A stretch of 64,000 nt of DNA from contig JBAZWY010000022.1 of the NCBI GenBank assembly GCA_041660125.1, positions 2,035 through 66,034 on the forward strand, read 5' to 3'. The notes beneath the pieces were generated by a model, which worked only from the letters and a program-made list of their open reading frames with translations, was not told the origin of the DNA and did not search any database. The position numbers and the translations under genes were made by a program. Shown here one piece after another: positions 4,545 to 12,882 of this stretch; the stretch's first letter is position 1; every line of letters begins with the position of its first letter. This stretch comes from Lentimicrobiaceae bacterium. GTDB taxonomy: Bacteria > Bacteroidota > Bacteroidia > Bacteroidales > UBA4417.

Positions 4545-4582
4545 TGTATGGATTTGCGTATTATATTCTTCGATTTGCGTAA
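4545..4582 (-). promoter_or_regulatory. Operator copy C upstream of SusC: perfect direct repeat ATTTGCGTA (4552-4560 and 4573-4581, 21-bp register)
   Basis: The sequence gtatggatttgcgtattatattcttcgatttgcgtaaa aligns with copies at 10893-10930 and 12845-12882. A TAnnTTTG -7 box (TACCTTTG on the minus strand, 4517-4524) lies 20 bp downstream in the direction of transcription. Confidence 0.5.
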
Positions 4583-4644
4583 ATTCGAATTCAGGATTCT
4601 TGGAAACTGGAATTTGAGCCTTGGAATTTTTTGCAACCGCAAAA

Positions 4645-5808
4645 TTATTTACGGGTAAGATGTTTTTTCCTGTATTCGATAGGAGTACAGCCTTTCACTT
4701 GTTTAAACTGGCGCGAAATATTTTTGCTGTTGTCGAAACCTGATTCAAGTGCAATCTCAAAAATAGTTTTATCCGTTTCGAGCAATCGTTGGGCAAATTT
4801 CTGTATTTGCAGGTTATAAATGTATTTGTACACTCCTATTCCGGTAGTTTCCTGGAAACGTTTTTCCAATGCTCTGCGTGAGAGCGGAACCTGTTTCACC
4901 ACATCAGCAACATTAATCCTGTCATCAATATTCTGATGTATAAATTTGAGGGCTTTAGCAATGTATTTATCGTTGGCCGAAGCGATATCGGTTGATTGCC
5001 GTGTTATAACCTGGGTAGGTTTTACAAGAATGTCGTAATGCTCGGTTACCTGGTGTGTGATCATAAGATCCATTAATCGTGCCGCTTCATAACCGCCTTT
5101 TTCAGTATCCAGGTCGATACTTGATAAAGGAGGATCTGATAAATTGCAGGTCATCTTGTCATTATCAACGCCAAGTACTGCGATTTCTTCCGGGATCTGG
5201 ATCCTGGCATGTTTGCAGGCTTCGGTAATATGCTGGCCCCGTTCGTCGTCGCATGCCATAATTGCGATGGGTTTTGGCAACGACTGCAGCCATTGGCTCA
5301 GAGCCGAAGGTTTATAATGCCACAACTCGCGCGAAGGAGCCTGGTCGTTATCAAAATAATGTACTTCGAAACCAAGTGGATTTAAGTGATTGGCAAAACC
5401 TTCGGCACGTTCGCGGGACCATACTATATTTTTAAATCCGTAAAAAGCGAAATTCCTGAATCCTTTCTCAAGGAAATATTCAGCTCCGATTCTCCCGGCT
5501 TCAAAATAACCTCCGGTGATGTTCGGAATATCCGAAAACCGCTCCTTAAAATCTTCAACAATCAGATGTATTCCTGCATCGAGTACTTTTTTAACGTCAA
5601 GGTCATTGTATAACTGGGCGATAATTCCATCGGCCCCCCATTCTTTTGCGAAATCCACTATGCCTTCCATTCCAAGTGTTTCCCTGTAAAACAATGGCAT
5701 ACGGCAGAATATCCAGGGGCCATGCTCCTTCGAGTATTTTACAACTCCTTTCATCAGGTTCTGACCGTATTCTTCCGAAATATCGATGAGAAGGATAATT
5801 TTGTGCAT
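4645..5808 (-). CDS. XylR-like hybrid transcriptional regulator (periplasmic-binding-protein-like sugar sensor domain plus C-terminal AraC-type HTH)
   Basis: 387 aa. The N-terminal ~270 aa look like a LacI/PBP-type sugar-binding fold. The C-terminal part (ALKFIHQNIDDRINVADVVKQVPLSRRALEKRFQETTGIGVYKYI...ESGFDNSKNISRQFKQVKGCTPIEYRKK) is a classic AraC/XylS HTH pair. Confidence 0.8.
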   Translation of the reverse strand: MHKIILLIDISEEYGQNLMKGVVKYSKEHGPWIFCRMPLFYRETLGMEGIVDFAKEWGADGIIAQLYNDLDVKKVLDAGIHLIVEDFKERFSDIPNITGGYFEAGRIGAEYFLEKGFRNFAFYGFKNIVWSRERAEGFANHLNPLGFEVHYFDNDQAPSRELWHYKPSALSQWLQSLPKPIAIMACDDERGQHITEACKHARIQIPEEIAVLGVDNDKMTCNLSDPPLSSIDLDTEKGGYEAARLMDLMITHQVTEHYDILVKPTQVITRQSTDIASANDKYIAKALKFIHQNIDDRINVADVVKQVPLSRRALEKRFQETTGIGVYKYIYNLQIQKFAQRLLETDKTIFEIALESGFDNSKNISRQFKQVKGCTPIEYRKKHLTRK

Positions 5809-5873
5809 AACGCTTGGTACAGTTATTCAGAAGCTAAAGTAATTCAAAATACAATGATGGCGAAACCGCCTGC

Positions 5874-11002: not shown

Positions 11003-11125
11003 AAATACAGGCATTTGGAAATCTGACCAACAGCAAAATTAGTGTTTCCGTATGTCACCCTTCGCCCCATCGCTCTTCTCCCATCTTAAAGACAAAAGGT
11101 TCAATGTTAATTAAACCCGAACGAT

Positions 11126-12769
11126 TCAGTCGGCCCAAGCCGGTCGGCGATAGTGAATGTTTTGTGAGTTTAAATAATTGAAATGTGACTTCATCCTGAT
11201 CTGGAAGGAATACCAGTCTCTTGCCGGTGTCCAGCAAACTTCGGAAAGAGCCATTATTGCAGGAAAAACATGTTGTTCGAAAACAGCTTCGGATGGTATT
11301 TCTTCAGTCCAGACACAGCCCTGCATTCCCCGGACTTTGCTCATGACTGTAGCAGGATATAAATCAACCGGATTATAGGAATACAAATTTTGTAAATTCT
11401 CATCCGTACTCGGACTCGAAAGGTAGAATTTCGACCAGTCGGTGATGATAATCGGATTGCCATTGGCAGCCGAGCGTGCAGGTGAATCTGTTACCCAATC
11501 ACGCCAGTACATCATAGTAATTTTATTGTCAATCTTTCCGTCAATTGCATCATCCCAGGCAATAACCGTCTTACCTTTTGCCTGCAGGTGTTCCTGGAGT
11601 TTTCTGACGAAAAAATTCTGGATTTCCCTGGGATCCGTCATGCCATGTTCCTGCATAAATGCCTGGCATCCGGGCGAAGAAGTCCAAGTGCCATTTTCCA
11701 CTTCATCGCAACCGATGTGTACAATTTTTGAAGGAAAAAGGTCGGCTATTTCATCCCACACTTTGTAGGAAAAATCCAATACATCAGGCTTGCAGGGACA
11801 AATGGGAAAGGAAAACTCCGTTCCCCAACCGGCCGAATCGACACAAGAAAGCTGTGGATAGGCTCTTATGGCAGCCGACATATGACCCGGCATATCTATT
11901 TCGGGAACAACGTCAATATAATGCGCCGTGGCATAAGCAATAATTTCACGAATATCCTGCTTTGTATAAAAACCTCCATAGACTTTCTGTCCGTTTACCT
12001 CTTTAATAAAACGCGGATCAATCGTATAGTCAGAATCCGTTTTGGCAAATTGCATGCAAGTGGAATCCAAATTATTGAACGTACGCCATGCGCCAATTTC
12101 GGTAAGTAACGGAAACTGATCAATTTGAATCCGCCAGCCCTGGTCATCAGTTAAATGTAGCTGTAGTTTGTTGAATTTATAATAAGCCAGCCAGTCGATA
12201 AGTTTCAGGATATATTCTTTGGTGAAAAAGTGCCTCGAAACATCCAGGTGGAATCCGCGCCAGGCATAACCCGGTTTATCCTTTATTGTCATAAAGCGAA
12301 GGGTGAAAGAATGTGTTTTCTGCCCCAAAGTGGAATTCCAGATCATTTGCCTTATTGATTGTGCGGCATAATAAGCACTTTCCGGGCTTTTAGCTTTTAC
12401 ATTAATTCCTTTTTCTGTAACTTCAATCTGATATGCACTGGTATCCAAGGTATTATCTATTGAGAATTGGATATTAGTCTTGCCTATTGGGGAATCATTT
12501 TTAGTAATCGGTGAACTAAGAACTACGGCAAGAGCATTTTCAACAACAGTAATAGCTGTCAGAAATTGTGAATTGTTTACCAGAACGATATTTTTATCGA
12601 TGGCGAGATTGCCATCGGCCAGGTTAACATTTAACGGAAGTGGAATAATGCCATGAACATTAACGGTTTGTGCCTGTGGATTTTCACCGGTCTTTTTACA
12701 TGAAGGAGACAGGAACAGGCAAAGTATGATACTTGCGACCCCTATATTTTTTATATAGATGCTTTTCAT
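11126..12769 (-). CDS. Beta-N-acetylhexosaminidase, glycoside hydrolase family 20 (lipoprotein)
   Basis: 547 aa. A lipoprotein signal is present (LFLSPSCKK). GH20 catalytic-domain motifs are present: RGFHLDVSRHFF, LHLTDDQGWR and HIGCDEV, the last holding the catalytic Asp-Glu pair. Confidence 0.9.
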   Translation of the reverse strand: MKSIYIKNIGVASIILCLFLSPSCKKTGENPQAQTVNVHGIIPLPLNVNLADGNLAIDKNIVLVNNSQFLTAITVVENALAVVLSSPITKNDSPIGKTNIQFSIDNTLDTSAYQIEVTEKGINVKAKSPESAYYAAQSIRQMIWNSTLGQKTHSFTLRFMTIKDKPGYAWRGFHLDVSRHFFTKEYILKLIDWLAYYKFNKLQLHLTDDQGWRIQIDQFPLLTEIGAWRTFNNLDSTCMQFAKTDSDYTIDPRFIKEVNGQKVYGGFYTKQDIREIIAYATAHYIDVVPEIDMPGHMSAAIRAYPQLSCVDSAGWGTEFSFPICPCKPDVLDFSYKVWDEIADLFPSKIVHIGCDEVENGTWTSSPGCQAFMQEHGMTDPREIQNFFVRKLQEHLQAKGKTVIAWDDAIDGKIDNKITMMYWRDWVTDSPARSAANGNPIIITDWSKFYLSSPSTDENLQNLYSYNPVDLYPATVMSKVRGMQGCVWTEEIPSEAVFEQHVFPAIMALSEVCWTPARDWYSFQIRMKSHFNYLNSQNIHYRRPAWAD

Positions 12770-12844
12770 GAAATATCGTTTTGTTCGTAGATGGAAAATG
12801 ATCCTGAAACTAGCACAAAGTTAACCTGCAAAACAAATCAAAGT

Positions 12845-12882
12845 GCAGGAATATGCGCATTAAAAACTTCTATTTACGCAAT
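12845..12882 (-). promoter_or_regulatory. Operator copy B upstream of GH20 (half-sites ATATGCGCA 12851-12859 and ATTTACGCA 12872-12880)
   Basis: The sequence is gcaggaatatgcgcattaaaaacttctatttacgcaat. The -7 box TAACTTTG (minus strand, 12816-12823) lies 21 bp downstream. Confidence 0.5.

Follow-up and report, generated by a model that had tools for sequence, protein, structure and literature searches.

The window analysed here is a stretch of 64,000 nucleotides of contig JBAZWY010000022.1 (assembly GCA_041660125.1) from a Lentimicrobiaceae bacterium of the Bacteroidota, and it carries a locus of amino-sugar genes, all on the minus strand, in which a bipartite DNA element, a candidate operator, is found three times. 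The locus comprises genes for a SusD-like protein (1-1271, identified from its translation, starting at 1271 and running off the window edge), a SusC-like TonB-dependent transporter with Plug and CarboxypepD_reg domains (1383-4388, with its ATG at 4388), a XylR-family regulator of 387 amino acids (aa; 4645-5808), a major facilitator superfamily (MFS) sugar transporter of the FucP/GluP/NagP-like type identified by domain search (5874-7112), a CsxA-like exo-beta-D-glucosaminidase of glycoside hydrolase family 2 (GH2; 7226-9853), a ROK-family sugar kinase of 277 aa (9980-10813), and a beta-hexosaminidase of family GH20 (11126-12769). With adjacent susC and susD genes, linked glycoside hydrolases of families GH2 and GH20, and a regulator of its own, the locus has the composition of a polysaccharide utilization locus (PUL). 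Past GH20 the neighbouring genes have housekeeping functions (thymidine kinase, cyclophilins, PheS, pyruvate kinase), which leaves no transcription factor in the locus other than the regulator; a preliminary description of this DNA had named a sensor-plus-AraC-type protein as its sole regulator, and Pfam and the annotation of the neighbours bear this out.

Region reading and a pattern search located the bipartite plus-strand pattern ATWTRCGYA-N12-ATTTRCGYA at 4552-4581, 10899-10928, and 12851-12880, with two 9-bp direct repeats exactly 21 bp apart in each of the three. Three bipartite sites with this repeat spacing had also been given in the preliminary description, whose 38-bp coordinates need no change for copies 2 and 3 but are one base low for copy 1 (4546-4583 rather than 4545-4582). 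All three operators point with the genes on the minus strand. Operator 1 (4552-4581, minus strand; sense strand TACGCAAATCGAAGAATATAATACGCAAAT) precedes susC and lies 63 nt past the stop codon of the regulator gene, operator 2 (10899-10928, minus strand; sense strand TGCGCAAATCGAGGTTTTAAATACGCATAT) precedes the ROK gene, and operator 3 (12851-12880, minus strand; sense strand TGCGTAAATAGAAGTTTTTAATGCGCATAT) precedes the GH20 gene; they lie 1.95 and 6.3 kb apart. Read on the sense strand, the conserved core is a 30-bp element, T[GA]CG[CT]A[AT][AT]T-[TC]GA[AG]G-N7-T[AG]CG[CT]A[AT][AT]T, which amounts to 38 bp with flanks. The 12-bp spacer is not featureless, since positions 10-14 (T/C-G-A-R-G) are conserved. 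The resulting TGA-R-G box lies about one helical turn beyond the distal TRCGCA and makes the site asymmetric, being kept after the distal repeat only, while its counterpart after the proximal repeat is degenerate.

Searching with a degenerate pattern and at most two mismatches returned only these three sites in 64 kb against 0.19 expected, a chance test that is circular in that the pattern was derived from the sites themselves. A non-circular test was performed using a position weight matrix (PWM) built from 16 sites in distant genomes, with the window and its close relatives excluded. Operators 1, 2, and 3 scored 33.7, 33.5, and 30.0 bits, respectively, the next best position in the 64-kb window scored 10.1 bits, and the best score per Markov shuffle of the window (n = 100) had a mean of 12.6 and a maximum of 22.5 bits. 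Single half-sites were not enriched in the window (20 found versus 24 expected), and only the bipartite arrangement is special. In agreement with what had been noted earlier, the PWM scan of the window gave no operator copy before the genes for GH2, MFS, or the regulator. The only terminator-like call near an operator was 10906-10891 (minus strand; ACGCATATTCCTGCGT), where the proximal half-site of operator 2 can pair with the following TCCTGCGT; this pairing was judged to be a chance one. A TCCTRC motif past operator 2 is kept only among close relatives.

Each operator is followed on the minus strand by a candidate -7 box, namely TACCTTTG at 4517-4524 in the susC promoter, TAGCTTTG at 10864-10871 in the promoter of the ROK operon, and TAACTTTG at 12816-12823 in the GH20 promoter. 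The offset from operator core to box is exactly 27 nt in all three cases, corresponding to 21 nt after the 38-bp element, for which a distance of 20-21 bp had been proposed. The sequence TAnnTTTG occurs 77 times in 128 kb (both strands of the window), or about once per 1.7 kb per strand, and three boxes at one identical offset are therefore far beyond chance. For the primary sigma factor of Bacteroidota, the promoter elements are TAnnTTTG at -7 and TTTG around -33 (PMC7366714, PMC2483708). The three window promoters have perfect TAnnTTTG boxes at a fixed offset, yet they are without TTTG at the expected -33 place. Promoters of Flavobacterium have a spacer of about 19 bp between -33 and -7. Given such a spacer, the expected TTG would fall at gap positions 6-8, which read CAC, CGT, and CAC in the window, and no conserved TTG was found at these positions in related sites either. 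A scan for sigma-70 promoters and terminators was discarded, as its counts were at shuffle level and its consensus is the wrong one for Bacteroidota.

Transcription of susC would start near 4510 and leave a 5' untranslated region of about 120 nt. If the start is taken to lie about 7 nt after the box, the operator would span roughly -39 to -68, its proximal repeat occupying about -47 to -39 and its distal repeat about -68 to -60. Judged from these positions, the layout would be that of a classic activator-dependent promoter, with the activator adjacent to the position of sigma region 4. A half-site had previously been placed around -33; the promoter-proximal repeat does adjoin the -33 region but does not cover it, ending 27 nt before the -7 box.

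The regulator gene encodes a LacI/periplasmic-binding-protein-type sensor joined to an AraC-type double helix-turn-helix (HTH), with Pfam matches to Peripla_BP_3 over residues 109-273 (6.5e-37) and to HTH_18/HTH_AraC over residues 305-381 (HTH_18, 1.6e-18). A phmmer search of the Protein Data Bank (PDB) aligned residues 2-381 with residues 6-385 of the chain of Escherichia coli XylR, 4FE4 (E 7.6e-45), and this two-domain architecture together with end-to-end homology places the protein in the XylR family. The operators of E. coli XylR are about 37 bp long, consist of two direct repeats next to -35, and are bound only with xylose (PMC3561964). The window sites agree with the family's operator form, of about 37 bp with two direct repeats near the upstream promoter element, as far as sequence geometry goes, and the AraC/XylR-type activator geometry put forward in the preliminary description is matched in this respect. 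Six xylose-contact residues are listed for E. coli XylR (PMC3561964), and in the alignment to 4FE4 four are kept (Y18/Y14, W135/W130, R139/R134, D219/D215) and two are changed (D65 to N68 and Q237 to L233). Neither xylA nor xylB is present among the regulated genes. A xylose-responsive regulator was rejected on account of the two changed contacts and the amino-sugar gene context without xylA and xylB; on the same grounds, the ligand would be a pyranose other than xylose, most plausibly glucosamine (GlcN) or N-acetylglucosamine (GlcNAc) or a derivative.

Conservation in relatives had been set beforehand as a test of the motif, and a regulator-anchored set was assembled from 80 genome loci centred on orthologues of the regulator (50-95% identity) with 10-kb flanks. 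Homologues of 65-70% identity are found throughout Bacteroidota, and ROK-MFS-regulator synteny is seen in most of the 80 loci, with GH2, GH20, and SusCD variably present. The first search of related loci used the two half-sites only and left the spacer free. It matched the close relatives L001-L006, a metagenome-assembled genome (MAG) of Salinivirgaceae, Flavobacterium-like MAGs, a Prevotellaceae MAG, and others, as well as the Chitinophagaceae Flavipsychrobacter, Flavihumibacter, and Niabella. In every correctly oriented match the unconstrained spacer starts with [TCA]GA[AGT][GT], a result that is not circular. The PWM scan added sites in Bacteroides cutis, Segetibacter, and Algoriphagus, and weaker ones in Chryseolinea/Flammeovirgaceae, so that the site recurs by regulator orthologues in Bacteroidales, Flavobacteriales, Chitinophagales, and some Cytophagales. 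Across 36 distinct sites there is no variation at C3, G4, G11, C24, and G25 and hardly any at A12 and G14, and positions 31-40 carry little information, in a conservation table that is partly circular because the sites were picked with the PWM.

The sites of the regulator-anchored set are always intergenic and oriented to the downstream gene, and 27 of 39 have a -7-like box exactly 27 nt past the site; the orientation and offset seen in the window thus recur in several orders. At the divergent ROK/SusC promoters of Chitinophagaceae (L021, L023, L025, L028) there is one correctly oriented site per direction. When a PWM of the three window sites alone was applied to loci that are not close relatives, 9 of 26 ROK upstream regions scored above the 99th percentile of 378 control upstream regions, versus four of the 378 controls. 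The genes preceded by the site encode ROK, SusC, GH20 (including L001 and L002), GH2, and MFS proteins, a NagB+PIG-L fusion, a PIG-L deacetylase, and extracytoplasmic function (ECF)-type sigma factors; a site before a YdjC-like gene is weak (17 bits) and lies below the shuffle maximum. The order regulator, site, susC is found in L001-L006, L047, L071, L100, L115, L118, L128, L131, L132, and L142, persisting down to 53-63% identity (L047, L071), and SusD orthologues of 56-81% identity come after SusC in L001-L006. Across orders, only the site is conserved, not the sequence flanking it.

In several lineages the operator precedes an open reading frame (ORF) of 175-189 aa: L070 at about 3197 (minus), L064 at about 3651 (minus), L082 at 2898-2927, L114 at 9052-9081, L117, L140, and L143. 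Pfam confirmed an ECF-type sigma factor for the ORFs of L070 and L082, and the others are similar in size, that of L114 also in sequence. The motif-first loci of this group, taken from the scan described below, have the -7 box at +27, and in L082 the ORF is followed by SusC and SusD. This arrangement suggests a cascade from a XylR-type regulator through an ECF sigma factor to a PUL in some lineages.

A motif-first search was performed by scanning 241 million metagenome records for the exact pattern. It produced 65 sites, of which 39 have a -7 box at +27 or +28, and the first downstream ORF encodes ROK in 15 cases, SusC in 13, NagB-PIG-L in two, and a 175-180-aa protein in several. Where a site stands before ROK or a close SusC, a regulator orthologue is present wherever the DNA reached the expected position (L088, L101, L106, L115, L128, L131, L132, L142). 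In L120 a site at 1853-1882 precedes genes for a SusC 25% identical to that of the window, a SusD, and a GH18 protein with a PKD domain, the genes extending to 8221; on this example the regulon would reach PULs of the chitinase or endo-beta-N-acetylglucosaminidase type in some organisms. L108 has a perfect site at 4209 (minus), TGCGCAAATTGAAGGTCCAATTGCGCAAAT, with a -7 box at +27, beside a regulator-like ORF (2660-3790) that is 36% identical to the window regulator, and a paralogous regulator subfamily may share the operator. About 17 motif-first sites are without a -7 box at any offset, which by a rough estimate with an assumed database size is the order of magnitude expected for chance matches to a 38-bit pattern; the six that were read lie in high-GC contigs beside unrelated genes, e.g. 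those for an acyltransferase and a 5-formyl-tetrahydrofolate cyclo-ligase-like protein. GC-rich spacers and no -7 box at +27 were seen in L086, L089, L105, L127, L130, and L134 (one shared sequence) and in L095, L098, L103, L129, L135, and L141. Five contigs contain the shared GC-rich match itself, and L130 contains an almost identical variant. These GC-rich exact matches are probably chance matches in other phyla.

The enzymes of the window locus point to amino-sugar substrates. The GH2 protein (N-terminus MLKELLLKTGILISLLTPVSSFAQ) has a signal peptide and a Pfam match to Ig_GlcNase (4.6e-33), and it matches CsxA, PDB 2VZS, over residues 39-872 with an E value of 1.1e-159. A beta-mannosidase, and with it an N-glycan core locus, was ruled out by the difference between the CsxA match (E 1e-159) and the beta-mannosidase match (1e-40). 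The GH20 protein (Pfam Glyco_hydro_20, 1e-95) has a lipoprotein-type signal sequence, its N-terminus containing ILCLFLSPSCKK. The ROK protein matches Pfam ROK over residues 3-276 (6.2e-43), has no HTH or other DNA-binding domain, and has sugar kinases as its nearest solved structures, and the MFS transporter probably brings the monosaccharide in across the inner membrane. Directly upstream of the GH20 promoter lies an ORF of 315 aa (13012-13959, minus strand), which has no Pfam or NCBIfam match and no operator before it. Freshwater metagenome contigs that contain the locus at about 99% identity differ from it around SusD (window 239-2119 and 1265-1359, i.e. SusD and the SusC/SusD junction), where several skips of 55-1394 nt and some small indels occur, and are collinear elsewhere; the skips may represent strain-level variation or assembly fragmentation.

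The intergenic gaps measure 126 bp between ROK and GH2, 113 bp between GH2 and MFS, and 65 bp between MFS and the regulator, and no TAnnTTTG (and thus no -7 box of their own for GH2, MFS, and the regulator) and no terminator-like site was found in these three gaps. The simplest reading is that ROK-GH2-MFS-regulator would form one operon driven from operator 2, an arrangement that would imply positive autoregulation. The MFS-regulator gap (5809-5873) holds TTGTATTTTGAA, which is one base short of TAnnTTTG and could be a weak constitutive promoter for basal expression of the regulator.

The best explanation of these results as a whole, and a probable one, is that the three sites are operators of the XylR-family one-component activator encoded at 4645-5808. 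The activator would act as one dimer per site, carrying an amino sugar from the cytoplasm (GlcN, GlcNAc, or one of their phosphates or oligomers), with one AraC-type double-HTH domain on each repeat; because the repeats are 21 bp apart, both would face the same side of the helix. The promoter-proximal subunit would lie beside -33 and recruit RNA polymerase, in an activation adjacent to the -35 region as with E. coli XylR and AraC. Three units would be switched on in this way, namely susCD for oligosaccharide uptake, the GH20 hexosaminidase, and ROK-GH2-MFS-regulator, and the regulator, as the last gene of the third unit, would activate its own synthesis. In MarA and Rob, the two HTH motifs of one AraC-type domain read adjacent major grooves. 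By analogy, the TGA-R-G box one turn past the distal TRCGCA would fit a reading of adjacent grooves by two HTH motifs, and its degenerate counterpart after the proximal repeat is as expected of DNA that has to make room for the polymerase as well.

Other origins of the sites were weighed against this proposal. Chance, a duplicated promoter cassette, a mobile or REP-like (repetitive extragenic palindromic) repeat, or an RNA element might be suspected because the three promoters resemble each other over a short stretch (about 40 bp) and lie in an AT-rich region. The independent PWM, however, sets the sites at least about 8 bits above the shuffles; alignment of the three promoters restricts their similarity to the operator and the -7 box; no Rfam family reaches threshold in window 1-14000; and the consistently intergenic, oriented position at a fixed offset, with unconserved flanks, makes an origin of this kind so improbable as to be effectively refuted. 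It is unlikely that the locus regulator binds the sites and represses, or acts dually, for instance by looping between operators. AraC itself represses by looping, and the three operators of the window lie within 8.3 kb. The dimer of E. coli XylR binds two duplexes and loops DNA (PMC3561964). Repression is nevertheless at odds with sites that keep a fixed offset, stay entirely upstream of the core promoter, and cover neither the -7 box nor the start, with promoters that have no -33 element, with the single site per contig of many relatives, and with the fact that both characterised XylR-family members compared, E. coli XylR and Vibrio XylRA, are activators.

That the sites are real cis-elements bound by a different protein encoded elsewhere, such as a hybrid two-component system (HTCS) or another AraC-type factor, is quite unlikely. 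The lack of another transcription factor in the window locus, the tight adjacency of regulator, site, and susC across orders, and the agreement of the site architecture with that of the XylR family all argue against such a protein. In its favour, a direct-repeat spacing of about 21 bp is likewise predicted for the HTCS motifs of Bacteroides (PMC3878776), the orthologues of Spirosomaceae, Dyadobacter, and others share the DNA-binding domain but have no site nearby, and some motif-first sites have no regulator in the DNA at hand (e.g. L082, L120).

Several results weigh against the proposal that the sites are operators of the locus activator. No site was found within +/-10 kb of the GH20-ROK-MFS-regulator operons of the Spirosomaceae, Dyadobacter, Cyclobacterium, and Emticicia orthologues, and a relaxed search of these lineages for TRCGYA pairs with 17-25 bp spacing gave only chance matches inside coding sequence. 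The predicted recognition helices of these proteins are essentially identical to those of the site-bearing lineages, and the only residues of the DNA-binding domain that discriminate the two groups are A286S, F289Y, I298L, V326I, and I349V; as no changes occur at the predicted helices, co-variation of regulator and motif neither supports nor refutes the link between them. Either the targets of the site-lacking lineages lie elsewhere, such that their regulators may act at distant loci, or the link between protein and site is weaker than it appears, and these unexplained lineages are the main reason why confidence in the operator proposal is not higher. The co-occurrence of site and regulator in the regulator-anchored set is partly by design, since the loci were chosen through the regulator, and in the motif-first set the regulator was seen in 14 of 64 cases, most contigs being too short to score. 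A stoichiometry of one dimer per two DNA duplexes, with looping, is described for E. coli XylR (PMC3561964), and by analogy it would be at odds with a plain arrangement in which a single dimer occupies both repeats; dimers may bridge operators that are 1.95 and 6.3 kb apart. A search of RNA data for transcription starts gave no run with window sequence, and three metatranscriptomes from a study whose DNA contains the locus yielded next to nothing.

The Spirosomaceae loci share a different conserved segment, GGTATTTTTAATAC-N8-GTATTATTAAGGCTAC, located about 20 nt before the ATG of an 860-aa GH20/chitobiase gene (L011 at 5030-5093; L012, L017, L019, L037, L049, L055, L066). The GGTATTTTTAATAC part forms a palindrome (GTATT/AATAC), and it can equally be read as a -7 box (GTAnnTTT) lying some 45 nt ahead of the ATG. 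The segment was considered as a diverged operator and dropped, since its first part fits a -7 box, and it was read as a core promoter with a conserved leader; it could be this or the operator of another regulator. A divergently oriented HGSNAT-like acetyltransferase gene is located opposite.

The PULs of Bacteroidota are commonly regarded as being under SusR-like, HTCS, or ECF/anti-sigma control, with sensing directed at the periplasm or outer membrane. The evidence leaves about an even chance that the sites belong to an undescribed, Bacteroidota-wide regulon, in which a cytoplasmic XylR-family activator would drive susCD PULs, amino-sugar genes, and its own operon through an asymmetric operator held rigidly at 27 bp from the -7 box, and in some lineages would stand above ECF sigma/SusCD units. 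If so, glucosamine or products of chito-oligosaccharides would probably be sensed by a route of PUL control distinct from SusR, HTCS, and ECF/anti-sigma systems, with a soluble sensor that appears to govern its own synthesis as well as susCD uptake, periplasmic trimming by GH20 and GH2, inner-membrane import, and the first step in the cytoplasm. A full-text literature search gave no description of the regulator, motif, or regulon, which is not proof of novelty. As a comparative-genomics regulon prediction the result is sound and fairly ordinary and introduces no new regulatory principle. It allows an operator (30 bp) and promoter offset to be defined for a chitosan/glucosamine PUL under a predicted cytoplasmic one-component regulator. 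It also offers a testable model of how uncultured Bacteroidota of freshwater and groundwater use chitosan and glucosamine, a scoring matrix with which the regulon can be annotated in other genomes, and, as a candidate tool for Bacteroidota genetics, a compact inducible promoter with its regulator.

Among known systems, E. coli XylR (PDB 4FE4/4FE7; IA/IF operators) shares with the window regulator the two-domain architecture, a full-length alignment, and the control of several transcription units. The recognition sequences are unrelated (TRCGCAWWT here versus gaAa-a-a-AAT), the promoters are of the Bacteroidota -7/-33 type rather than -10/-35, and the targets form an amino-sugar/chitosan locus with susCD rather than xylAB/xylFGH. 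Unlike that of E. coli XylR, the regulator gene of the window would sit inside a regulated operon, and its context favours GlcN/GlcNAc over xylose. AraC, RhaS, and MelR bind tandem sites in the same orientation, the proximal one touching -35, and have cupin-type sensors and known contacts with RNA polymerase. The window promoters resemble theirs in the tandem sites, in a proximal site that is less conserved in its downstream half, and in a core promoter without a good upstream element, whereas the contact with the Bacteroidota sigma-A would here be a predicted one.

XylRA of Vibrio, an activator of a beta-1,3-xylan locus with sites before enzyme, transporter, and catabolic genes, is likewise a XylR-family regulator with several direct-repeat sites at one polysaccharide cluster, and its motif was found by cross-genome comparison and confirmed by electrophoretic mobility shift assay, isothermal titration calorimetry, and knockouts (PMC12125979). 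It differs in its AT-rich motif, its xylose effector, and its gammaproteobacterial host. A survey of 11 Bacteroides genomes (Ravcheev 2013, PMC3878776) gives NanR, of the ROK family, for GlcNAc and does not list a regulator of the window type. The HTCS motifs predicted for Bacteroides (PMC3878776) have in common with the window sites the phylum, an AraC-type domain, and direct repeats spaced about 21 bp before susC-led operons; HTCS proteins are membrane-bound and sense periplasmic oligosaccharides, whereas the window regulator is a soluble cytoplasmic one-component sensor.

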